The translations under genes and the position numbers were made by a program. Positions 1-18,600 of a DNA stretch of 64,000 nucleotides are shown one piece after another. The DNA lies in NCBI GenBank assembly GCA_964016885.1, contig OZ024741.1:258416001-258480000 (forward strand), read 5' to 3'. The notes beneath the pieces were generated by a model that worked only from the letters and a program-made list of their open reading frames with translations, had not been told where the DNA came from and ran no database searches. The first letter of the stretch is position 1, and the number at the start of each line of letters is the position of its first letter. This DNA comes from Eledone cirrhosa. Lineage: Eukaryota.

Positions 1-3000
1 ACTTACGGGTGTTTCGACTTACGCGTGTTTCGACTTACGAGTGTTTCGACTTACGAGTGTTTCGGCTTATGAGTGTTTCGAATTACGAGTGTTTTGACTT
101 ACGGGTATTTTGACATACGAGTGTTTCGGTACGAGTGTTCTGACTTACGAGTGTTCTGACTTACGAGTGTTCTGACTTACGAGTGTTCTGACTAACGGGT
201 GTTCTGACTTACGAGTGTTCCGACTTACGAGTGTTTCGGCTTTGAGTGTTTTGACTTACGGGTGTTTCGACTTACGGGTGTTTCGTCTTACGAGTGTTTC
301 GACTTACGTGTGTTTCCGCTTACGAGTGTTTCGGCTTACGAGTGTTTCGACTTACGAGTATTTCGACTTACGAGTTTTTTTACTTACGGTGTTTCGGCTT
401 ACGAGTGTTTCGACTTATGAGTGTTCTGATTTACGGATGTTTCGACATACGAGTGTTTTGACTTACGGTGTTTCGACTTACGAGTGTTTCGACTTACGAG
501 TGTTTCGACTTACGGGTGTTTCGACTTACGAGTGTTTCGACTTACGAGTGTTACGACTTACGGGTGTTCTGACTTACGAGTGTTTCGACTTGCGAGTGTT
601 CTGACTTACGGGTGTTTCGACTTACGAGTGTTTCGACTTGCGAGTGTTTTGACTTACGAGTGTTCTGACTTACGAGTGTTCTGACTTACGAGAGTTCCGA
701 CTTACGACTGTTTCGACTTACGAGTGTTTTGACTTACGAGTGTTCTGACTACGAGTGTTCTGACTTACGGGTGTTCTGACTTACGAGTGTTCCGACTTAC
801 GAGTGTTTCGGCTAATGAGTGTTTCGACTTACGGGCGTTTCGACTTACGGGTGTTTCGACTTACGAGTGTTTTGACTTACGAGTGTTCTGACTTACGAGT
901 GTTCTGACTTACGAGAGTTTCGACTTATGAGTGTTTCGACTTACGAGTGTTTCGGCTTACGAGTGGTTTGACTTACGAGTGTTCTGACTACGAGTGTTTT
1001 GACTTACGAGTATTTCGGCTTATGAGTGTTTCGACTTACGAGTGTTTCGGCTTATGAGTGTTTTGACTTACGAGTGTTTCGACTTATGAGTGTTTCGACT
1101 TACGAGTGTTTCGGCTTACGAGTGGTTTGACTTACGAGTGTTCTGACTACGAGTGTTTTGACTTACGAGTATTTCGGCTTATGAGTGTTTCGACTTACGA
1201 GTGTTTCGGCTTATGAGTGTTTCGACTTACGTGTGTTTCGGTTTACGAGTGTTTCGACTTACGAGTGTTTCGACTTACGGGTGTTTCGACTTACGAGTGT
1301 TTCGACTACGAGTGTTTCGACTTACGAGTGTTTCGGCTTACGAGTGTTTCGACATACGGGTGTTTCGACTTACGATGTTTCGGCTTACGAGTGTTTCGAC
1401 TTACGAGTATTCTGACTTACGGGTGTTTCGACTTACGGGTGTTTCGACTTAAGAGTGTTTCGACTTACGAGCGCTTCGATTTCCGAGTGTTCTGACTTAC
1501 GAGTGTTCTGACTTACGAGTGTTTCGGCTTACGAGTGTTTCGACTTACGAGTGTTCCGGCTTACGCGTGTTTCGACTTACGAGTGTTTCGGCTTATGAGT
1601 GTTTCGACTTACGAGTGCTTCGGCTTACGAGTGTTTCGACTTACGAGTGTTTCGGCTTACGAGAGTTTCGACTTACGAATGTTTTGGCTTACGAGTGTTT
1701 CGGCTTACGAGTGTTTCGACTTACGGGTGTTTCGACTTACGGGTGTTCCGACTTAAGAGTGATTCGACTTACGAGCGCTTCGACTTACGAGTGTTCCGAC
1801 TTACGAGTGTTTCTGCTTACGAGTGTTTCGACTTACGAATGTTTCGACTTACGAGTGTTTCGGCTTACGAGTGTTTCGACTTACTAATGTTTTTACTTAC
1901 GAGTGTTTCGGCGTACGAGTGTTTCGACTTACGAGTGTTTCGGCTTACGAGTGTTTCGACTTACGAGTGTTTTTACTTAATGGTGTTTCGACTTACGAGT
2001 ATTTTTGGCTTACGAGTGTTTCGACTTACGAGTGTTTTGACTTACGAGTGTTCTGATTTACGAATGTTTCGACATACGAGTGTTTTGACTTACGATGTTT
2101 CGACTTACGAGTGTTTCGACTTACGAGTGTTTCGACTTACGGGTGTTTCGACTTACGAGTGTTTCGACTTACGAATGTTTCGACTTACGGGTGTTCCGGC
2201 TTACGAGTGTTTCGACTTACGAGTGTTCTGACTTACGAGTGTTCTGACTTACGAGTGTTCCGGCTTACGAGTTTTTCGACTTACGAGTGTTTCGACTTAC
2301 GAGTGTTTCGACTTACGAGTGTTTCGACTTGCGAGTGTTTCGACTACGGGTGTTTCGACTTACGAATGTTTTGACTTACGGATGTTTTGACTTACGGGTG
2401 TTTCGGCTTACGAGTGTTTCGACTTACGAGTGTTCTGACTTACGAGTGTTCTGACTTACGAGTGTTCTGACTTACGAGTGTTCCGACTTACGAGTGTTTC
2501 GGCTTTCGAGTGTTTCGACTTACGAGTGTTTCGGGTTACGAGTGTTTCGACATACGAATGTTTTCGCTTACGAGTGTTTCCGCTTAGGAGTGTTTCGACT
2601 TACGAGTGTTTTGACTTACGGTTTTTCGGCTTGCGAGTGTTTCGACATACGAGTGTTTTGACTTACGGGCGTTTCGACTTACGGGTGTTTCGACTTACGA
2701 GTGTTTCGACTTACGAGTGTTCTGACTTACGAGTGTTCTGACTTGCGAGTGTTCCGACTTACGAGTGCTTCGGCTTACGAGTGTTTCGACATACGAGTGT
2801 TTTGACTTACGGATGTTTCAACTTACGGGTGTTTCGACTTACGAGTGTTTCGACTTACGAGTGTTCTGACTACGAGTGTTCTGACTTACGGGTGCTCTGA
2901 CTTACGAGTGTTTCGACTTACGAGTGTTTCGACTTACGAGTGTTTCGGCTTACGAGTGTTTCGACTTACGAGTGTTTTGACTTACGAATGTTTTGCCTTA

Positions 3001-6000
3001 CGGGTGTTCCGGTTTACGAGTGTTTCGACTTACGAGTATTCTGACTTACGAGTGTTCCGACTTACGGGTGTTTCGACTTACGAGTGTTTCGACTTACGAG
3101 TGTTCCGACCTATGAGGGTTTCGGCTTACTGGTGTTCCGACTTACGAGTATTTTCGGCTGACGAGTGTTTCGAGTTACGAGTGTTTTGACTTACGATTGT
3201 TTCGGCTTACGAGTGTTTCGGCTTACGAGTGTTTTGATTTACGAGTGTTTTGACTTACGGGTGTTTCGACTTACGCGTGTTTCGACTTACGAGTGTTTCG
3301 ACTTACGAGTGTTCCGACTTACGAGTGTTTCGGCTATGAGTGTTTTGACTTACGGGTGTTTCGACTTACGGGTGTTTCGACTTACGAGTGTTTCGACTTA
3401 CGTGTGTTTCCGCTTACGAGTGTTTCGGCTTACGAGTGTTTCGAATTACGAGTGTTTTGGCTTACGAATGTTTTGACTTACGGGTGTTTCGGTGTACGAG
3501 TGTTTCGACTTAAGGATGTTTCGACTTACGAGTGTTTCGACTTACGAGTGTTTCGACTTACGAGTGTTCTGACTTACGAGTGTTACGAGTTACGAGTGTT
3601 CCGACTTACGAGTGTTTCGGCTTACGAGTGTTTCGGCTTACGAGTGTTTCGGCTTACGAGTGTTTTGACTTACGAGTGTTCTGACTACGAGTGTTCTGAC
3701 TTACGGGTGTTCTGACTTACGAGTGTTCCGACTTACGAGTGTTTCGGCTAATGAGTGTTTCGACTTACGGGCGTTTCGACTTACGGGTGTTTCGACTTAC
3801 GAGTGTTTTGACTTACGAGTGTTCTGACTTACGAGTGTTCTGACTTACGAGAGTTCCGACTTACGACTGTTTCGACTTACGAGTGTTTTGACTTACGAGT
3901 GTTCCGACTTACGAGTGTTTCGGCTTATGGGTGTTTTGACGTACGAGTATTTTTGGCTTACGAGTGTTTCTACTTACGAGTGTTTTGAATTACGATTGTT
4001 TCGGCTTACGAGTGTTTCGACTTACGAGTATTTCGACTTACGAGTTTTTTTACTTACGGTGTTTCGGCTTACGAGTGTTTCGACTTATGAGTGTTCTGAT
4101 TTACGGATGTTTCGACATACGAGTGTTTTGACTTACGGTGTTTCGACTTACGAGTGTTTCGACTTACGAGTGTTTCGACTTACGGGTGTTTCGACTCACG
4201 AGTGTTCCGACTTACGAGTGTTACGACTTACGGGTGTTCTGACTTACGAGTGTTTCGACTTACGAGTGTTCTGACTTACGGGTGTTTCGACTTACGAGTG
4301 TTTCGACTTACGAATGTTTTGACTTACGGGTGTTTCGGCTTACGAGTGGTTTGACTTACGAGTGTTCTGACTACGAGTGTTCTGTCTTACGAGTGTTTCG
4401 ACTTACGAGTGTTTCGGCTTATGAGTGTTTCGACTTACGAGTGTTTCGGCTTACGAGTCTTTCGACTTACGAGTGTTTCGACTTACGGGTGTTTCGACTT
4501 ACGAGTGTTTCGACTACGAATGTTTCGACTTACGAGTGTTTCGGCTTACGAGTGTTTCGACTTATGGGTGTTTCGACTTACGAGTGTTTTTACTTACGGT
4601 GTTTCGGCTTACGAGTGTTTCGACATACGAGTGTTTTGACTTACGGGTGTTTCGACTTACGAGTGTTTCGACTTACGAATGTTTTGACTTACGGGTGTTT
4701 CGGCTTACGAGTGTTTCGATTTATGAGTGTTTCGGCTTACGAGTGTTTCGACTTACTAATGTTTTTACTTACGAGTGTTTCGGCGTACGAGAGTTTTGAC
4801 TTACGAGTGTTTCTACTTACGAGTGTTTCGACTTACGAGTGTTTTGACTTACGAATGTTTTGACTTACGGGTGTTTCGGCTTACGAGTGTTTCGACTTAC
4901 GAGTCTTTCGGCTTACGAGTGTTTCGACTTACTAATGTTTTTACTTACGAGTGTTTCGGCGTACGAGTGTTTCGACTTACGAGTGTTTCGACTTACGGGT
5001 GTTTTGACTTACGGGTGTTTCGGCTTACGAGTGTTTCGACTTACGAGTGTTTTGACTTAAGGGTGTTTCGACTTACGAGTATTTTTGGCTTACGAGTGTT
5101 TCGACTTACGAGTGTTTTGACTTACGAGTGTTCTAATTTACGGATGTTTCGACATACGAGTGTTTTGACTTACGAGTGTTTCGACTTATGAGTGTTTCGA
5201 CTTACGAGTGTTTCGGCTTACGAGTGGTTTGACTTACGAGTGTTCTGACTACGAGTGTTTTGACTTACGAGTGTTTCGGCTTATGAGTGTTTCGACTTAC
5301 GAGTGTTTCGGCTTATGAGTGTTTCGACTTACGAGTGTTTCGGTTTACGAGTGTTTCGACTTACGAGTGTTTTTACTTAAGGGTGTTTCGACTTACGAGT
5401 ATTTTTGGCTTACGAGTGTTTCGACTTACGAGTGTTTTGACTTACGAGTGTTCTGATTTACGAATGTTTCGACATACGAGTGTTTTGACTTACGATGTTT
5501 CGACTTACGAGTGTTTCGACTTACGAGTGTTTCGACTTACGGGTGTTTCGACTTACGAGTGTTTCGACTTACGAATGTTTCGACTTACGGGTGTTCCGGC
5601 TTACGAGTGTTTCGACTTACGAGTGTACTGACTTACGAGTGTTCTGACTTACGAGTGTTCCGGCTTACGAGTTTTTCGACTTACGAGTGTTTCGACTTAC
5701 GAGTGTTTCGACTTACGAGTGTTTCGACTTACGAATGTTTTCGCTTACGAGTGTTTCGACTTACGAGTGTTTCGACTTACGAGTGTTTTGACTTACGGTT
5801 TTTCGGCTTGCGAGTGTTTCGACATACGAGTGTTTTGACTTACGGGCGTTTCGACTTACGGGTGTTTCGACTTACGAGTGTTTCGACTTACGAGTGTTCT
5901 GACTTACGAGTGTTCTGACTTGCGAGTGTTCCGACTTACGAGTGCTTCGGCTTACGAGTGTTTCGACATACGAGTGTTTTGACTTACGGATGTTTCAACT

Positions 6001-9000
6001 TACGGGTGTTTCGACTTACGAGTGTTTCGACTTACGAGTGTTCTGACTACGAGTGTTCTGACTTACGGGTGCTCTGACTTACGAGTGTTTCGACTTACGA
6101 GTGTTTCGACTTACGAGTGTTTCGGCTTACGAGTGTTTCGACTTACGAGTGTTTTGACTTACGAATGTTTTGCCTTACGGGTGTTCCGGTTTACGAGTGT
6201 TTCGACTTACGAGTATTCTGACTTACGAGTGTTCCGACTTACGGGTGTTTCGACTTACGAGTGTTTCGACTTACGAGTGTTCCGACCTATGAGGGTTTCG
6301 GCTTACTGGTGTTCCGACTTACGAGTATTTTCGGCTGACGAGTGTTTCGAGTTACGAGTGTTTTGACTTACGATTGTTTCGGCTTACGAGTGTTTCGGCT
6401 TACGAGTGTTTTGATTTACGAGTGTTTTGACTTACGGGTGTTTCGACTTACGCGTGTTTCGACTTACGAGTGTTTCGACTTACGAGTGTTTCGGCTTATG
6501 AGTGTTTCGAATTACGAGTGTTTTGACTTACGGGTATTTTGACATACGAGTGTTTCGGTACGAGTGTTCTGACTTACGAGTGTTCTGACTTACGAGTGTT
6601 CTGACTTACGAGTGTTCTGACTAACGGGTGTTCTGACTTACGAGTGTTCCGACTTACGAGTGTTTCGGCTATGAGTGTTTTGACTTACGGGTGTTTCGAC
6701 TTACGGGTGTTTCGTCTTACGAGTGTTTCGACTTACGTGTGTTTCCGCTTACGAGTGTTTCGGCTTACGAGTGTTTCGACTTACGAGTATTTCGACTTAC
6801 GAGTTTTTTTACTTACGGTGTTTCGGCTTACGAGTGTTTCGACTTATGAGTGTTCTGATTTACGGATGTTTCGACATACGAGTGTTTTGACTTACGGTGT
6901 TTCGACTTACGAGTGTTTCGACTTACGAGTGTTTCGACTTACGGGTGTTTCGACTTACGAGTGTTTCGACTTACGAGTGTTACGACTTACGGGTGTTCTG
7001 ACTTACGAGTGTTTCGACTTGCGAGTGTTCTGACTTACGGGTGTTTCGACTTACGAGTGTTTCGACTTACGAGTGTTTTGACTTACGAGTGTTCTGACTT
7101 ACGAGTGTTCTGACTTACGAGAGTTCCGACTTACGACTGTTTCGACTTACGAGTGTTTTGACTTACGAGTGTTCTGACTACGAGTGTTCTGACTTACGGG
7201 TGTTCTGACTTACGAGTGTTCCGACTTACGAGTGTTTCGGCTAATGAGTGTTTCGACTTACGGGCGTTTCGACTTACGGGTGTTTCGACTTACGAGTGTT
7301 TTGACTTACGAGTGTTCTGACTTACGAGTGTTCTGACTTACGAGAGTTTCGACTTATGAGTGTTTCGACTTACGAGTGTTTCGGCTTACGAGTGGTTTGA
7401 CTTACGAGTGTTCTGACTACGAGTGTTTTGACTTACGAGTATTTCGGCTTATGAGTGTTTCGACTTACGAGTGTTTCGGCTTATGAGTGTTTTGACTTAC
7501 GAGTGTTTCGACTTATGAGTGTTCCGACTTACGAGTGTTTCGGCTTACGAGTGGTTTGACTTACGAGTGTTCTGACTACGAGTGTTTTGACTTACGAGTA
7601 TTTCGGCTTATGAGTGTTTCGACTTACGAGTGTTTCGACTTACGAATGTTTTGACTTACGGGTGTTTCGGCTTACGAGTGGTTTGACTTACGAGTGTTCT
7701 GACTACGAGTGTTCTGTCTTACGAGTGTTTCGACTTACGAGTGTTTCGGCTTATGAGTGTTTCGACTTACGAGTGTTTCGGCTTACGAGTCTTTCGACTT
7801 ACGAGTGTTTCGACTTACGGGTGTTTCGACTTACGAGTGTTTCGACTACGAATGTTTCGACTTACGAGTGTTTCGGCTTACGAGTGTTTCGACTTATGGG
7901 TGTTTCGACTTACGAGTGTTTTTACTTACGGTGTTTCGGCTTACGAGTGTTTCGACATACGAGTGTTTTGACTTACGGGTGTTTCGACTTACGAGTGTTT
8001 CGACTTACGAATGTTTTGACTTACGGGTGTTTCGGCTTACGAGTGTTTCGATTTATGAGTGTTTCGGCTTACGAGTGTTTCGACTTACTAATGTTTTTAC
8101 TTACGAGTGTTTCGGCGTACGAGAGTTTTGACTTACGAGTGTTTCTACTTACGAGTGTTTCGACTTACGAGTGTTTTGACTTACGAATGTTTTGACTTAC
8201 GGGTGTTTCGGCTTACGAGTGTTTCGACTTACGAGTCTTTCGGCTTACGAGTGTTTCGACTTACTAATGTTTTTACTTACGAGTGTTTCGGCGTACGAGT
8301 GTTTCGACTTACGAGTGTTTCGACTTACGGGTGTTTTGACTTACGGGTGTTTCGGCTTACGAGTGTTTCGACTTACGAGTGTTTTGACTTAAGGGTGTTT
8401 CGACTTACGAGTATTTTTGGCTTACGAGTGTTTCGACTTACGAGTGTTTTGACTTACGAGTGTTCTAATTTACGGATGTTTCGACATACGAGTGTTTTGA
8501 CTTACGAGTGTTTCGACTTATGAGTGTTTCGACTTACGAGTGTTTCGGCTTACGAGTGGTTTGACTTACGAGTGTTCTGACTACGAGTGTTTTGACTTAC
8601 GAGTGTTTCGGCTTATGAGTGTTTCGACTTACGAGTGTTTCGGCTTATGAGTGTTTCGACTTACGAGTGTTTCGGTTTACGAGTGTTTCGACTTACGAGT
8701 GTTTTTACTTAAGGGTGTTTCGACTTACGAGTATTTTTGGCTTACGAGTGTTTCGACTTACGAGTGTTTTGACTTACGAGTGTTCTGATTTACGAATGTT
8801 TCGACATACGAGTGTTTTGACTTACGATGTTTCGACTTACGAGTGTTTCGACTTACGAGTGTTTCGACTTACGGGTGTTTCGACTTACGAGTGTTTCGAC
8901 TTACGAATGTTTCGACTTACGGGTGTTCCGGCTTACGAGTGTTTCGACTTACGAGTGTACTGACTTACGAGTGTTCTGACTTACGAGTGTTCCGGCTTAC

Positions 9001-12000
9001 GAGTTTTTCGACTTACGAGTGTTTCGACTTACGAGTGTTTCGACTTACGAGTGTTTCGACTTACGAATGTTTTCGCTTACGAGTGTTTCGACTTACGAGT
9101 GTTTCGACTTACGAGTGTTTTGACTTACGGTTTTTCGGCTTGCGAGTGTTTCGACATACGAGTGTTTTGACTTACGGGCGTTTCGACTTACGGGTGTTTC
9201 GACTTACGAGTGTTTCGACTTACGAGTGTTCTGACTTACGAGTGTTCTGACTTGCGAGTGTTCCGACTTACGAGTGCTTCGGCTTACGAGTGTTTCGACA
9301 TACGAGTGTTTTGACTTACGGATGTTTCAACTTACGGGTGTTTCGACTTACGAGTGTTTCGACTTACGAGTGTTCTGACTACGAGTGTTCTGACTTACGG
9401 GTGCTCTGACTTACGAGTGTTTCGACTTACGAGTGTTTCGACTTACGAGTGTTTCGGCTTACGAGTGTTTCGACTTACGAGTGTTTTGACTTACGAATGT
9501 TTTGCCTTACGGGTGTTCCGGTTTACGAGTGTTTCGACTTACGAGTATTCTGACTTACGAGTGTTCCGACTTACGGGTGTTTCGACTTACGAGTGTTTCG
9601 ACTTACGAGTGTTCCGACCTATGAGGGTTTCGGCTTACTGGTGTTCCGACTTACGAGTATTTTCGGCTGACGAGTGTTTCGAGTTACGAGTGTTTTGACT
9701 TACGATTGTTTCGGCTTACGAGTGTTTCGGCTTACGAGTGTTTTGATTTACGAGTGTTTTGACTTACGGGTGTTTCGACTTACGCGTGTTTCGACTTACG
9801 AGTGTTTCGACTTACGAGTGTTTCGGCTTATGAGTGTTTCGAATTACGAGTGTTTTGACTTACGGGTATTTTGACATACGAGTGTTTCGGTACGAGTGTT
9901 CTGACTTACGAGTGTTCTGACTTACGAGTGTTCTGACTTACGAGTGTTCTGACTAACGGGTGTTCTGACTTACGAGTGTTCCGACTTACGAGTGTTTCGG
10001 CTATGAGTGTTTTGACTTACGGGTGTTTCGACTTACGGGTGTTTCGTCTTACGAGTGTTTCGACTTACGTGTGTTTCCGCTTACGAGTGTTTCGGCTTAC
10101 GAGTGTTTCGACTTACGAGTATTTCGACTTACGAGTTTTTTTACTTACGGTGTTTCGGCTTACGAGTGTTTCGACTTATGAGTGTTCTGATTTACGGATG
10201 TTTCGACATACGAGTGTTTTGACTTACGGTGTTTCGACTTACGAGTGTTTCGACTTACGAGTGTTTCGACTTACGGGTGTTTCGACTTACGAGTGTTTCG
10301 ACTTACGAGTGTTACGACTTACGGGTGTTCTGACTTACGAGTGTTTCGACTTGCGAGTGTTCTGACTTACGGGTGTTTCGACTTACGAGTGTTTCGACTT
10401 ACGAGTGTTTTGACTTACGAGTGTTCTGACTTACGAGTGTTCTGACTTACGAGAGTTCCGACTTACGACTGTTTCGACTTACGAGTGTTTTGACTTACGA
10501 GTGTTCTGACTACGAGTGTTCTGACTTACGGGTGTTCTGACTTACGAGTGTTCCGACTTACGAGTGTTTCGGCTAATGAGTGTTTCGACTTACGGGCGTT
10601 TCGACTTACGGGTGTTTCGACTTACGAGTGTTTTGACTTACGAGTGTTCTGACTTACGAGTGTTCTGACTTACGAGAGTTTCGACTTATGAGTGTTTCGA
10701 CTTACGAGTGTTTCGGCTTACGAGTGGTTTGACTTACGAGTGTTCTGACTACGAGTGTTTTGACTTACGAGTATTTCGGCTTATGAGTGTTTCGACTTAC
10801 GAGTGTTTCGGCTTATGAGTGTTTTGACTTACGAGTGTTTCGACTTATGAGTGTTCCGACTTACGAGTGTTTCGGCTTACGAGTGGTTTGACTTACGAGT
10901 GTTCTGACTACGAGTGTTTTGACTTACGAGTATTTCGGCTTATGAGTGTTTCGACTTACGAGTGTTTCGGCTTATGAGTGTTTCGACTTACGTGTGTTTC
11001 GGTTTACGAGTGTTTCGACTTACGAGTGTTTCGACTTACGGGTGTTTCGACTTACGAGTGTTTCGACTACGAGTGTTTCGACTTACGAGTGTTTCGGCTT
11101 ACGAGTGTTTCGACATACGGGTGTTTCGACTTACGATGTTTCGGCTTACGAGTGTTTCGACTTACGAGTATTCTGACTTACGGGTGTTTCGACTTACGGG
11201 TGTTTCGACTTAAGAGTGTTTCGACTTACGAGCGCTTCGATTTACGAGTGTTCTGACTTACGAGTGTTCCGACTTACGAGTGTTTCGGCTTACGAGTGTT
11301 TCGACTTACGAGTGTTCCGGCTTACGCGTGTTTCGACTTACGAGTGTTTCGGCTTATGAGTGTTTCGACTTACGAGTGCTTCGGCTTACGAGTGTTTCGA
11401 CTTACGAGTGTTTCGGCTTACGAGAGTTTCGACTTACGAATGTTTTGGCTTACGAGTGTTTCGGCTTACGAGTGTTTCGACTTACGGGTGTTTCGACTTA
11501 CGGGTGTTCCGACTTAAGAGTGATTCGACTTACGAGCGCTTCGACTTACGAGTGTTCCGACTTACGAGTGTTTCTGCTTACGAGTGTTTCGACTTACGAA
11601 TGTTTCGACTTACGAGTGTTTCGGCTTACGAGTGTTTCGACTTACTAATGTTTTTACTTACGAGTGTTTCGGCGTACGAGTGTTTCGACTTACGAGTGTT
11701 TCGGCTTACGAGTGTTTCGACTTACGAGTGTTTTTACTTAATGGTGTTTCGACTTACGAGTATTTTTGGCTTACGAGTGTTTCGACTTACGAGTGTTTTG
11801 ACTTACGAGTGTTCTGATTTACGAATGTTTCGACATACGAGTGTTTTGACTTACGATGTTTCGACTTACGAGTGTTTCGACTTACGAGTGTTTCGACTTA
11901 CGGGTGTTTCGACTTACGAGTGTTTCGACTTACGAATGTTTCGACTTACGGGTGTTCCGGCTTACGAGTGTTTCGACTTACGAGTGTTCTGACTTACGAG

Positions 12001-14700
12001 TGTTCTGACTTACGAGTGTTCCGGCTTACGAGTTTTTCGACTTACGAGTGTTTCGACTGACGAGTGTTTCGACTTACGAGTGTTTCGACTTGCGAGTGTT
12101 TCGACTACGGGTGTTTCGACTTACGAATGTTTTGACTTACGGATGTTTTGACTTACGGGTGTTTCGGCTTACGAGTGTTTCGACTTACGAGTGTTCTGAC
12201 TTACGAGTGTTCTGACTTACGAGTGTTCTGACTTACGAGTGTTCCGACTTACGAGTGTTTCGGCTTTCGAGTGTTTCGACTTACGAGTGTTTCGGGTTAC
12301 GAGTGTTTCGACATACGAATGTTTTCGCTTACGAGTGTTTCCGCTTAGGAGTGTTTCGACTTACGAGTGTTTCGACTTACGAGTGTTTTGACTTACGGTT
12401 TTTCGGCTTGCGAGTGTTTCGACATACGAGTGTTTTGACTTACGGGCGTTTCGACTTACGGGTGTTTCGACTTACGAGCGTTTCGACTTACGAGTGTTCT
12501 GACTTACGAGTGTTCTGACTTGCGAGTGTTCCGACTTACGAGTGCTTCGGCTTACGAGTGTTTCGACATACGAGTGTTTTGACTTACGGATGTTTCAACT
12601 TACGGGTGTTTCGACTTACGAGTGTTTCGACTTACGAGTGTTCTGACTACGAGTGTTCTGACTTACGGGTGCTCTGACTTACGAGTGTTTCGACTTACGA
12701 GTGTTTCGACTTACGAGTGTTTCGGCTTACGAGTGTTTCGACTTACGAGTGTTTTGACTTACGAATGTTTTGCCTTACGGGTGTTCCGGTTTACGAGTGT
12801 TTCGACTTACGAGTATTCTGACTTACGAGTGTTCCGACTTACGGGTGTTTCGACTTACGAGTGTTTCGACTTACGAGTGTTCCGACCTATGAGGGTTTCG
12901 GCTTACTGGTGTTCCGACTTACGAGTATTTTCGGCTGACGAGTGTTTCGAGTTACGAGTGTTTTGACTTACGATTGTTTCGGCTTACGAGTGTTTCGGCT
13001 TACGAGTGTTTTGATTTACGAGTGTTTTGACTTACGGGTGTTTCGACTTACGCGTGTTTCGACTTACGAGTGTTTCGACTTACGAGTGTTCCGACTTACG
13101 AGTGTTTCGGCTATGAGTGTTTTGACTTACGGGTGTTTCGACTTACGGGTGTTTCGACTTACGAGTGTTTCGACTTACGTGTGTTTCCGCTTACGAGTGT
13201 TTCGGCTTACGAGTGTTTCGAATTACGAGTGTTTTGGCTTACGAATGTTTTGACTTACGGGTGTTTCGGTGTACGAGTGTTTCGACTTAAGGATGTTTCG
13301 ACTTACGAGTGTTTCGACTTACGAGTGTTTCGACTTACGAGTGTTCTGACTTACGAGTGTTACGAGTTACGAGTGTTCCGACTTACGAGTGTTTCGGCTT
13401 ACGAGTGTTTCGGCTTACGAGTGTTTCGGCTTACGAGTGTTTTGACTTACGAGTGTTCTGACTACGAGTGTTCTGACTTACGGGTGTTCTGACTTACGAG
13501 TGTTCCGACTTACGAGTGTTTCGGCTAATGAGTGTTTCGACTTACGGGCGTTACGACTTACGGGTGTTTCGACTTACGAGTGTTTTGACTTACGAGTGTT
13601 CTGACTTACGAGTGTTCTGACTTACGAGAGTTCCGACTTACGACTGTTTCGACTTACGAGTGTTTTGACTTACGAGTGTTCCGACTTACGAGTGTTTCGG
13701 CTTATGGGTGTTTTGACGTACGAGTATTTTTGGCTTACGAGTGTTTCTACTTACGAGTGTTTTGAATTACGATTGTTTCGGCTTACGAGTGTTTCGACTT
13801 ACGAGTATTTCGACTTACGAGTTTTTTTACTTACGGTGTTTCGGCTTACGAGTGTTTCGACTTATGAGTGTTCTGATTTACGGATGTTTCGACATACGAG
13901 TGTTTTGACTTACGGTGTTTCGACTTACGAGTGTTTCGACTTACGAGTGTTTCGACTTACGGGTGTTTCGACTCACGAGTGTTTCGACTTACGAGTGTTA
14001 CGACTTACGGGTGTTCTGACTTACGAGTGTTTCGACTTACGAGTGTTCTGACTTACGGGTGTTTCGACTTACGAGTGTTTCGACTTACGAATGTTTTGAC
14101 TTACGGGTGTTTCGGCTTACGAGTGGTTTGACTTACGAGTGTTCTGACTACGAGTGTTCTGTCTTACGAGTGTTTCGACTTACGAGTGTTTCGGCTTATG
14201 AGTGTTTCGACTTACGAGTGTTTCGGCTTACGAGTCTTTCGACTTACGAGTGTTTCGACTTACGGGTGTTTCGACTTACGAGTGTTTCGACTACGAATGT
14301 TTCGACTTACGAGTGTTTCGGCTTACGAGTGTTTCGACTTATGGGTTTTTCGACTTACGAGTGTTTTTACTTACGGTGTTTCGGCTTACGAGTGTTTCGA
14401 CATACGAGTGTTTTGACTTACGGGTGTTTCGACTTACGAGTGTTTCGACTTACGAATGTTTTGACTTACGGGTGTTTCGGCTTACGAGTGTTTCGATTTA
14501 TGAGTGTTTCGGCTTACGAGTGTTTCGACTTACTAATGTTTTTACTTACGAGTGTTTCGGCGTACGAGAGTTTTGACTTACGAGTGTTTCTACTTACGAG
14601 TGTTTCGACTTACGAGTGTTTTGACTTACGAATGTTTTGACTTACGGGTGTTTCGGCTTACGAGTGTTTCGACTTACGAGTCTTTCGGCTTACGAGTGTT
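1..14700 (+). repeat. Higher-order repeat: 1-~4920 recurs at +9761/+9777; the underlying unit is ~6429 bp
   Basis: Matching ORF-track entries at 215/6644/9976, 1185/10946, 1599/11360, 2845/12622, 3888/13665 and 4282/14059. Rare variants are shared, e.g. TACTTAATGGTG (1974, 11735) and GACTCACGAG (4192, 13970). Confidence 0.9.
4282..10945 (+). repeat. Tandem duplication of a 3332-bp HOR unit (4282-7613, 7614-10945)
   Basis: A constant +3332 offset holds for identical translated blocks: 4282/7614, 4775/8107, 5287/8619, 6022/9354, 6644/9976 and 6913/10245. Confidence 0.92.
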
Positions 14701-14948
14701 TCGAATTACGAGTGTTTTGACTTAAGGGTGTTTCGACTTACGAGTATTTTTGGCTTACGAGTGTTTCGACTTACGAGTGTTTCGACTTACGAGTGTTTCG
14801 GCTTACGATTGTTTCGACTTACGAGTGTTTCGGCTTACGAGTGTTTCAGTGTTTCGGCTTACGTGTGTTTCGACTTACGAGTGTTTCGATTTACGAGTGT
14901 TTCGGCTTACGAGTGTTTCGGCTTACGAGTGTTTCGGCTTATTATATA

Positions 14949-15027
14949 TAAACGTTTCTATTTCCATCGTTTTATCGTAAACGTTTATATATTTCCATCG
15001 TTATATCATAACGTTTATATTTCCGTC
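14949..15027 (+). repeat. ~29-30 bp minisatellite, 2.6 copies (AACGTTTATATTTCCATCGTTWTATCRT-like)
   Basis: Units are AACGTTTCTATTTCCATCGTTTTATCGTA (14951), AACGTTTATATATTTCCATCGTTATATCAT (14980) and AACGTTTATATTTCCGTC (15010). Confidence 0.85.
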
Positions 15028-15203
15028 ACTAATCTCTTTTTCTCCTTTTTCGTTTTAACATATATTTATTTCAAAGATTTCACCGTATAGATAACATATA
15101 TATTTATACATGCATAAAAGAGACACTGAGAGACGGTGAACATGTGGTGCCAAAAACATTTCTAATCCAAATCTCAACAATATCAGTATATACACTAGAT
15201 TTG

Positions 15204-15240
15204 CTAGCAGAAAACCGCCCACCGGGTGGTTTTCTGCTAG
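15204..15240. other. 17-bp inverted repeat (hairpin) with CTAG at both ends; putative rolling-circle termination signal
   Basis: CTAGCAGAAAACCGCCC-ACC-GGGTGGTTTTCTGCTAG gives 16/17 Watson-Crick pairs plus one G-T, with a 3-nt loop. Confidence 0.85.
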
Positions 15241-15680
15241 TCTATATATATAAAACTGAGGATGTCTGTCTGTGTGTGAGTTTGAATCCCTAAAACTCGA
15301 GAACCACCCAACCGACTGTTTTCAAACTTTACACATGTAATACGTACGTTTCAGGGAGTGTTCTGAGCAAAGAATATTTCAAATTTTCAATGCCCTAGGG
15401 ACCACATTAGGCGATTTAGCGATCTCTCTCTATAATTCTTAGTCTTTCTCTTTTTAGATAGATACATACATATAACGTCGTGCCCTTATAATATCTGTCT
15501 GTATGTCTGGCTCTCTGCATTACGTCACTTCCCTGAGGATGTCTGTCTGTGTGTGTGTCTGTGAGTTTGAATCCCTAAAATGCGAGAAGTACCCAACCGA
15601 TTTTTTTCAAACTTTACATGTGTATTACTTATGTTTCAGGGAGTGTTTGTTATGCACATAAAATTCAACCTTTTGATCTG
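15241..15680 (+). mobile_element. 5'-terminal segment of a non-autonomous Helitron-like element running into the satellite
   Basis: It starts TCTATATATATAAAA (5'-TC plus an AT-rich run), followed by a GTCT/GT microsatellite and AACTCGAGAACCACCCAACCGACTGTTTTCAAACTTT. As I recall it, this layout is typical of animal non-autonomous Helitron/DINE-1/Lep1-like elements. No 3' end occurs before the satellite resumes. Confidence 0.75.
15256..15647 (+). repeat. Diverged direct repeat of ~110 bp (15256-15362 and 15533-15647)
   Basis: Both copies read CTGAGGATGTCTGTCTGTGTGTG...GAGTTTGAATCCCTAAAA..CGAGAA..ACCCAACCGA...TTTTCAAACTTTACA..TGTA.TAC.TA.GTTTCAGGGAGTGTT. Their starts are 277 bp apart. Confidence 0.93.
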
Positions 15681-18600
15681 GTGTTTCGACTTACGAGTGT
15701 TTCGACTTACGAGTGTTTCGACTTACGAGTGTTTTGACTTACGAGTGTTTTGACTTACGGTATTTCTGCTTACGAGTGTTTCGACTTACGAGTGTTACGA
15801 GTGTTCTGACTACGAGTGTTTCGACTTACGAGTGTTCTGACCTACGAGTGTTCTGACTTACGAGTTTTTCGACTTACGAGTGTTTTGACTTACGGGTGTT
15901 TCGACTTGCGAGTGTTTCGAGTTACGAGTGTTTCGAGTTACGAGTGTTTCGACTTACGAGTATTTTGACTTACGAATGTTCTGACTTACGGGTGTTTCGG
16001 CTTCCGAGTGTTTCGACTTACGAGTGTTATAACTTGCGGGTGTTTCGACTTACGCGTGTTTTGACTTACGGGCGTTTCGACTTAGGAGTGTTTCGACTAC
16101 GAATGTTCCGACATACGAGTGTTTCGACTTACGAGTGTTTCGACTTACGAGTGTTCTGACTTACGAGTGTTCCGACTTACGAGTGTTTTGGCTTACGATT
16201 GTTTCGACTTACGAGTGTTTCGGTTTACGAGTGTTTCGACTTACGAGTGATTCGACTTACGAGTGTTCCGACTTACGAGTGTTACGACTTACGAGTGTTC
16301 CGACTTACGAGTGTTTCGGCTTACGAGTGTTTCGGCTTACGCGTGTTTCGACTAACTAGTGTTTCGGCTTACGAGTGTTTCGACTTACGGGTGTTTCGGC
16401 TTACGAGTGTTTCGACTTACGAGTGTTTCGACTTACGAGTGTTTTGACATACGGTGTTTCGGCTTACGAGCGTTTCGACATACGAGTGTTTTGACTTACA
16501 GGTGTTTCGAGTTACGGGTGTTTCGACTTAAGAGTGTTTCGACTTACGAGCGCTTCGACTTACGAGCGTACTGACTTACGAGTGTTCCGACTTACGAGTG
16601 TTTCTGCTTACGAGTGTTTCGACTTACGAGTGTTTCGACTTACGAATGTTTCGACTTACGGGTGTTTCGGCTTACGAGTGTTTCGACTTACGAGTGTTTC
16701 GACTTACGAATGTTTCGACTTACGGGTGTTTCGGCTTACGAGTGGTTTGACTTACGAGTGTTCTGACTTACGAGTGTTCCGGCTTACGAGTTTTTCGACT
16801 TACGAGTGTTTCGACTTACGAGTGTTTCGACTTACGAGTGTTTCGGCTTACGAGTGGTTTGACTTACGAGTGTTCTGACTACGAGTGTTCTGACTTACTA
16901 GTGTTTCGGCTTACGAGTGTTTCGACTTACGGGTGTTTCGACTTACGGGTGTTTTGACATACGAGTGTTTCGATACGAGTGCTCTGACTTACGAGTGTTC
17001 TGACTTACGAGTGTTCTGACTTACGAGTGTTCTGACTTACGGGTGTTCTGACTTGCGAGTGTTCCGACTTACGAGTGTTTCGGCTTACGAGTGTTTCGGC
17101 TTACGAATGTTTCGGCTTACGAGTGTTTTGACTTACGAGTGTTCTGATTACGAGTGTTCTGACTTACGGGTGTTCTGACTTACGAGTGTTCCGACTTACG
17201 ACTATTCCGACTTACGAGTGTTTCGGCTTACGGGTGTTTCGACGTAAGAGTATTTTTGGCTTACGAGTGTTTCGAGTTACGAGTGTTTTGAATTACGATT
17301 GTTTCGGCTTACGAGTGTTTCGACTTACGAGTATTTCGACTTACGAGTTTTTTTACTTACGGTGTTTCGGCTTACGAGTGTTTCGACTTACGAGTGTTTC
17401 GACTTACGGCTGTTTTGACATACGAGTGTTTCGATACGAGTGCTCTGACTTACGAGTGTTCTGACTTACGAGTGTTCTGACTTACGAGTGTTCTGACTTA
17501 CGGGTGTTCTGACTTACGTGTGTTCCGACTTACGAGTGTTTCGGCTATGGGTGTTTCGACTTACGAGTGTTTCGACTTACGAATGTTTTGGCTTACGAGT
17601 GTTTCGGCTTACGAGCGTTTTGACTTACGAATGTTTTGGCTTACGAGTGTTTCGGCTTATGGGTGTTTCGACTTACGAGTGTTTCGACTTACGAGTGTTT
17701 TGACTTACGGTGTTTCGGCTTACAAGTTATTCGACATACGAGTGTTTCGACTTACGGGTGTTTCGACTTACGAGTGTTTCGACTTACGAGTGTTCTGACT
17801 TACGAGTGTTCTGACTTACGAGTGTTCTGACTTACGAGTGTTCCGACTTACGAGTGTTCCGACTTACGAGTGTTTTGACTTACGAATGTTTTGCCTTACG
17901 GGTGTTCCGGTTTACGAGTGTTTCGACTTACGAGTATTCTGACTTACGAGTGTTCCGACTTACGGGTGTTTCGACTTACGAGTGTTTCGACTTACGAGTG
18001 TTTCGGCTTACGAGAGTTTCGACTTACGAATGTTTTGGCTTACGAGTGTTTCGGCTTACGAGTGTTTCGACTTACGGGTGTTTCGACTTACGGGTGTTCC
18101 GACTTAAGAGTGATTCGACTTACGAGCGCTTCGACTTTCGAGTGTTCCGACTTACGAGTGTTTCTGCTTACGAGTGTTTCGACTTACGAATGTTTCGACT
18201 TACGAGTGTTTCGGCTTACGAGTGTTTCGACTTACTAATGTTTTTACTTACGTGTGTTTCGGCGTACGAGTGTTTCGACTTACGAGTGTTTCGGCTTACG
18301 AGTGTTTCGACTTACGAGTGTTTTTACTTAAGGGTGTTTCGACTTACGAGTATTTTTGGCTTACGAGTGTTTCGACTTACGAGTGTTTTGACTTACGAGT
18401 GTTCTGATTTACGAATGTTTCGACATACGAGTGTTTTGACTTATGATGTTTCGACTTACGAGTGTTTCGACTTACGAGTGTTTCGACTTACGGGTGTTTC
18501 GACTTACGAGTGTTTCGACTTACGAATGTTTCGACTTACGGGTGTTTCGGCTTACGAGTGTTTCGACTTACGAGTGTTCTGACTTACGAGTGTTCTGACT

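Follow-up and report, generated by a model that had tools for sequence, protein, structure and literature searches.

The stretch analyzed here (the window) comprises 64 kb of a 3.0-Gb assembly (C2:258,416,001-258,480,000) and consists of one array of a 16-bp satellite repeat, about 4,012 units, in which 14946-15675 is the sole stretch of at least 5 bp that does not belong to the 16-mer. In this island a hairpin closing in CTAG abuts the TC start of what looks like the head of a Helitron, and the satellite lies on both outer sides. The locus therefore raises the question of whether we see the tail-to-head junction of giant, satellite-filled rolling-circle elements, as proposed in the preliminary description, or something else. 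The features of the window are as follows:

1-14941, + strand: 16-mer satellite, the last 15 kb of a block that starts about 663 kb leftward at the 5' half of a family-T Helitron (C2:257,766,104-257,768,345)
14942-15240, + strand: 3' tail of the non-autonomous Helitron family T, 98-99% identical to dispersed tails that follow 2-4 16-mers
14942-15024, + strand: subrepeats of about 31 bp that open the T tail
15204-15240, + strand: 37-bp terminal hairpin closing in CTAG, common to several families of differing interiors
15240-15241, + strand: CTAG/TC junction of families T and H
15241-15679, + strand: first 439 bp of the non-autonomous Helitron family H (full length about 870 bp, with its own 3' hairpin and CTAG)
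15263-15647, + strand: internal direct repeat of H (15263-15362 and 15548-15647), 86% identical
15679-15680, + strand: single-origin breakpoint from the cut H to the satellite, outside any CTRR terminus of H and identical in every H-to-satellite junction read
15680-64000, + strand: 16-mer satellite, which extends to C2:258,506,718 (75 kb in all) and is followed by a 39-mer satellite, with no tail

The CTAG occupies 15237-15240 and TCTATATATATAAAA begins at 15241, with no base between them, exactly as first described. The hairpin arms (15204-15220 and 15224-15240) are 94% complementary, and DNA folding of 15190-15260 yields -17.9 kcal/mol (z -7.84, with 0 of 200 shuffles equally good). The right edge, too, was correctly seen to lack a 3' terminus and to run straight into the array, at 15679/15680; the H part measures 439 bp instead of the 440 bp given earlier. 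The longest stop-to-stop frame of the island is 88 aa. Its uniqueness holds within the window only, as the right junction has 109 matches genome-wide. The array itself exhibits higher-order periods, with exact 200-mers recurring at 3332, 7792, 7697, 11576 and 16790 bp, and 76% of the 64-mers of the left arm recur in the right arm.

Genome searches with each half of the island (40 scored matches of 1,568 and of 2,860 candidates) reveal that it comprises the tail of one non-autonomous Helitron (T) and the head of another (H). Dispersed T tails occur on C1-C4, C6, C22, C25 and C28; upstream of them stand 2-4 16-mers and, further upstream, a different segment, termed here B. The family T element is about 1.6-2.1 kb long, starts with A/TCTCC, and has the order own head, 2-7 copies of the 16-mer, tail. 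Its native repeat-to-tail junction has 140 exact matches; in the first 30 of these the tract is 28-108 bp long and segment B precedes it in every case, and H is ahead of the tract in none of the 30. As had been supposed, the family of the tail has the 16-mer as its native internal repeat. With respect to its termini, T has the features of a non-autonomous canonical Helitron, i.e. a 5' TC after A (A/TCTCC at 12 of 13 C-type heads upstream of T-type ends) and a 3' hairpin-CTRR followed by T (the next base is T in 100/100 listed T-type ends). The T hairpin reaches the CTAG itself rather than stopping about 10 bp short of it, and no target site duplication was seen in the flanks of T copies.

The H start has 1,164 matches genome-wide. 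Among the first 100 heads, A precedes 91 and CTAG precedes 7, with a pattern that excludes the usual T end. All 12 displayed copies of H carry their own hairpin and terminus near 870 bp (CTAG/T in 10), the 3' end being read off alignment ends; the A/TC start together with this hairpin-CTAG/T end makes H a Helitron family as well. Both pieces of the island thus turned out to be Helitron ends, as anticipated, but not the two ends of one element, since H has its own 3' end and T its own head. T is a young family and H an older one. Assignment of T or H to Helentrons, DINE-1 or HINE was rejected, because their starts are TC after A and their ends are CTAG before T; this test concerned the 5' TT start and the oligo-T target. 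Several families resemble T in no more than the final 36-282 bp of its end, and the C head too is common to several, so that the T lineage is defined by its termini and has swapped interiors. The same TATATATATATATT comes after eight of the T-type ends, and at one of them an inverted H head is located just upstream, hinting at an inverted composite element.

How did the two families come to be joined without a single base between them? The T-type end has 856 matches genome-wide, with a pattern that needed A or T 14 bases on. Among the first 100 (on C1, in position order; hand count) the next bases are TC in 88. A second family taken as control (2,471 matches) is followed by TC in 9 of its first 100 ends, and a third, RepHel-linked family in 8 of 66, all of them its own head, the rest being mostly (TA)n (both hand counts). 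The difference between 88/100 and 9/100 corresponds to a Fisher p of 5e-32, although a few of the sites compared may be duplicates. We fetched 20 of the 100 T-type ends by hand, 19 of the TC type and one of the TA type, one locus having a second site; all 20 TC-type sites proved to be Helitron-like heads of several kinds, and the TA-type site did not. The full tail with 16-mers is present in only 3 of these 21 sites, the others sharing 36-282 bp of the end. The 30 dispersed T copies agree with this pattern, with TC following 22 of their 23 readable ends. CTAG/TC is therefore the usual state of T-type ends and no circle is needed for it, contrary to its initial interpretation as a sign of circular intermediates.

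In nine dispersed T/H pairs the tails are 1.0% apart and the H parts 6.4%, with H the more diverged in 36/36 comparisons, which implies that T arrived separately, in front of H copies that were already older. We infer from these sequences that young T copies inserted independently at the A/T formed by the host's A and the first T of an older Helitron. A different reading would have the T+H composite transposed as one piece by read-through of T's terminator, with T not targeted to heads at all. End bypass has been shown for Helraiser, compound elements have been reported in bats (PMC4224331), and about half of the listed followers of T-type ends start with TCTATATATATAAA. However, these followers comprise many different head types, and H behind near-identical tails is six times more diverged than the tails themselves, so that read-through of a composite seems largely refuted and is very unlikely. 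Taken on its own, the proposal that this Helitron lineage evolved a nearly exclusive preference for the 5' starts of other Helitrons as insertion sites is well supported and probable.

The Helitron target is usually given as just A/T, and here one family sits at the starts of other Helitrons. This family is more novel than the satellite expansion described below. A 2008 study of maize (PMC2267711) reported one case of a Helitron inserted at another's start; there it is a single instance, whereas in our genome a family with 856 ends or more follows it as a rule. In the literature we covered, which took in few subscription papers, there is no report of a Helitron family targeting the 5' ends of other Helitrons. 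Helitrons are reportedly found near Helitrons, according to Yang and Bennetzen in 2009. Because T sits at other Helitrons' heads, a CTAG/TC junction cannot be counted as evidence of rolling-circle tandems unless both sides are checked to be of one family. Insertion at heads also offers a simple route to the chimeric Helitrons of many genomes. The three Helitron families compared have three extended targets 3' of the insertion, namely Helitron heads, an AT-rich T...ATAAA motif, and (TA)n, all of which resemble a Helitron 5' start to some degree.

A RepHel transposase whose preferred target resembles a Helitron start is presumed to have inserted T. RepHel is abundant in the genome (150 scored matches of 3,704 candidates) and includes a 1,718-aa frame with Helitron_like_N and PIF1 domains behind an A/TC start, with 11 STPR-repeat matches ahead of the Helitron domain. 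The tail of T was found at none of 20 long-frame loci picked from the 150. The RepHel-linked control family targets (TA)n and was rejected as the autonomous partner of T.

Analysis of the satellite blocks reveals where the arrays come from. Those at C2:254.735 and 257.768 Mb open with the host A/TC, the 5' part of T, segment B, and then the satellite; the latter start is that of the left array of the window. The B segment of this founder carries a deletion seen in 0/31 dispersed copies, which makes the junction found in 67-bp pieces (the last 67 bp of B). These have 1,903 exact matches and are strewn every 1-3 kb in most blocks, always with the single junction; none is in the window and five are in the 10 kb to its left. 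At C2:240.96 Mb a 4-kb inverted array with 67-bp pieces ends in tail/H, with H continuing into its native body. The 16-mer satellite goes back to a single founder copy of T.

Formally, the left array makes up the interior of a T element of 665 kb that ends at 15240, since a T head stands at its start and 18/18 further samples between there and the window are 16-mer on the + strand. The view of this array as the interior of an element holds to this extent, that a Helitron 5' half is reached after about 663 kb; the head there is T, however, and not H. Together with a daughter array on C1, this could suggest that giant elements, i.e. [head]-[tens of kb of satellite]-[tail], move as units and so spread the satellite. 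Against it, the same host flank adjoins both T-head starts, with 99% identity over more than 5.6 kb, and a decayed LINE-like flank matches at 99.5% over 3.6 kb between two block ends, which indicates segmental or assembly duplication and not a jump. Moreover, the repeat does not exceed 108 bp in the dispersed T copies read, no dispersed head-(16-mer)n-tail copy with the window's head was found, and the right array is closed by no tail, the 39-mer satellite taking over after 75 kb. The C1 array (C1:279.30-279.39 Mb, 96.6 kb) carries the founder's 67-bp junction, but contains no head, tail or island and has other satellites at both ends; shared 64-mers identify no single source block for it on C2. 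Hence the spread of the satellite by transposon-bounded giant elements, central to the preliminary description, is refuted for the ends examined and is scarcely credible.

Among the 13 block ends read, two are at the 5' half of T (one duplicated site), one is tail/H, and ten are other satellites, LINE-like sequence, (TA)n or cut pieces; none starts at the A/TC of H and none ends with tail/host DNA. On the evidence of these 13 ends, a rolling-circle concatemer of Helitrons, which should begin and end at element termini and have one element as its unit, was rejected. On C2 a duplication of 3-4 Mb, with boundaries 99-99.5% identical, is either a real duplication or two haplotypes in series.

Nearly all H-to-satellite junctions lie in one region of C2. 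Of the 109 matches, 100 listed are all at C2:256.63-261.56 Mb, a further seven are at 261.61-261.67 Mb and two were not seen, so that at least 107 belong to one locus. Over 96 intervals the median island spacing is 4.05 kb (range 1.9-393 kb), and 68/96 intervals are under 10 kb; a multi-island spacing of 1923-3369-5594 was found three times, and an equal spacing of 2830 bp in six intervals. The window's island stands apart, its neighbors being 1.0 Mb and 0.48 Mb away. A repeating [head]-[satellite]-[tail] unit had been predicted, and islands do recur in tandem, but mostly at about 4 kb instead of tens of kb. No H-satellite-tail unit was found outside the locus among the copies examined.

Blocks of the 16-mer, on both strands, extend from 254.74 to 261.67 Mb and amount to about 5.4 Mb if they are continuous between the samples on which continuity rests, 13 block ends having been read; they are interleaved with 39-mer, 45-mer and 11/33-mer satellites. 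The domain on C1 has 25/28-mer and 19-mer satellites, and the 11/33-mer is common to C1 and C2. Both domains look pericentromeric and seem to have exchanged blocks; the setting is a multi-megabase satellite mosaic on C2 and C1, in which the 16-mer domain possibly has a centromeric role. We found no report of this 16-mer satellite, again in literature that included few subscription papers.

The 25 islands compared are on average 1.6% apart, with sublineages up to 2.9%, and they group with the copy at C2:240.96 Mb with 94/93 support (just under strong), 3 of 45 named loci having been dropped at the motif step. These data bear on the suspicion that the islands, as a pattern or in their number, are a product of faulty assembly, arising from mis-joins or from both haplotypes placed in series. 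Gaps of 200 N at C2:254.72 and 260.18 Mb would be in keeping with this suspicion, as would two block starts and two block ends that form 99-99.5% identical pairs 3-4 Mb apart. Runs X7 and X10, from other samples, show next to nothing across 15650-15679, which says little, because X7 is small and X10 is a reduced-representation run. Against it stand the distinct sublineages of the islands and the short-read contigs from runs X4 and X5, which span the right junction at 15620-15705 with depths of 302 and 414. These are summed contig depths rather than copy numbers, and the contigs reach 26 bases into the satellite, fewer than the 31 required by the rule applied; X4 and X5 are one sample, which may be the assembly's own source. 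We consider an artefact highly improbable.

Taken together, the data make the island a likely relic of a single T-H founder pair; the internal 16-mer of this pair would have grown in place to a multi-megabase satellite. As the junction counts suggest, a RepHel transposase would first have put a T copy exactly at the A/TC start of an older H, creating CTAG/TC, in the manner of most other T insertions. The 3-4 internal 16-mers of this founder, identified as the origin by its private marks, would then have expanded. Two one-off tandem duplications straddling the edges, each recorded in a single breakpoint, may next have drawn pieces into the array, namely 67 bp of T's left flank and the tail with the 439 bp of H. 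Finally, unequal exchange or other block duplication, inversion and megabase segmental duplication would have multiplied these pieces, and a 97-kb block without Helitron ends would have moved into another satellite domain on C1.

Several findings speak against growth purely in place. The runs of equal spacing fit rolling-circle concatemers as well as unequal exchange. A TCA-less variant of the tail junction is not private to the array, since 6 of its 48 matches are outside the locus, all in short ordinary dispersed T copies; the pattern used missed a 6-bp-deleted variant and covers only part of the islands. Each island keeps an intact hairpin-CTAG/TC, intact RepHel frames are present in the genome, and hairpin-CTAG/TC is the junction of the active Helitron circle of Helraiser (PMC4778049). 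RepHel rolling circles from the island junction are thus conceivable, because such junctions are active in Helraiser circles and RepHel genes are at hand: a looped-out circle of H439, satellite and tail may have been replicated from CTAG/TC and re-entered as concatemers, the islands being the origins that drove growth. The clustering of islands at 3-6 kb spacing, and the resemblance of the H 5' start to that of RepHel-coding elements, agree with this. Nevertheless, there is no chimeric unit outside the locus, and neither cluster ends nor block ends are at termini; the 67-bp piece, which has no Helitron terminus, was amplified far more and is 17 times commoner than the island; and no islands accompanied the growth of the blocks at 254.7-256.4 Mb and on C1. 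We regard replication of such a circle as improbable. A broader scenario would combine the head-targeting lineage with one looped T/H junction that served as a RepHel rolling-circle origin and rapidly amplified four copies of a 16-bp repeat to more than five megabases, forming a new, possibly centromeric domain; it is slightly more doubtful still.

The expansion in place of the founder's repeat has precedents of two kinds. Internal repeats of Helitrons and Helentrons seed satellites in Drosophila (DINE-TR1 and 154TR; review PMC12628747) and in oyster (Cg_HINE and Cg170/HindIII; PMC7492417). In common with DINE-TR1 and Cg_HINE, as described there, we find that dispersed non-autonomous elements have short internal arrays, that long arrays stand alone, and that there are arrays flanked by parts of the element on one side only. 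In contrast to them, the elements here are canonical TC...CTAG at A/T and not Helentrons at oligo-T, the unit is 16 bp instead of 140-180 bp, and the whole satellite is traced to one copy by private marks, with both ends in place. Insertion-site preference has also been proposed to make dimers of transposable elements that are later amplified by unequal exchange (McGurk and Barbash 2018, PMC5932611). In that study, where the word Helitron is absent, the dimers are of the same family and have target duplications, whereas here a hetero-dimer is involved and mainly the internal repeat has expanded. Our system works like Helitron-internal-repeat satellites and like dimer-seeded satellites. Tandem Helitron arrays (Xiong et al. 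2016; Pritham and Feschotte 2007; the Y of D. pseudoobscura) are similar in having many CTAG/TC junctions in one heterochromatin-like region. These arrays reportedly repeat a single element, in many cases with numerous 5' ends to one 3' end, whereas here each junction joins two families and is older than the array.

The locus provides an unusually full record of the birth of a satellite, including the short-array sources, the marked founder, both ends, the swept-in edge pieces and the daughter block on C1, all within about 1-3% divergence. The path from a transposon-internal repeat to a megabase satellite, which has long been argued for, thereby becomes testable step by step.

A further set of repeated structures involves RepHel. 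Matches with the same open-frame lengths (362 or 1036 aa) occur about every 100-200 kb at C20 3.5-5.2 Mb, C27 13.0-15.5 Mb and C19 35-40 Mb, which suggests very large tandem or segmental units containing a Helitron.
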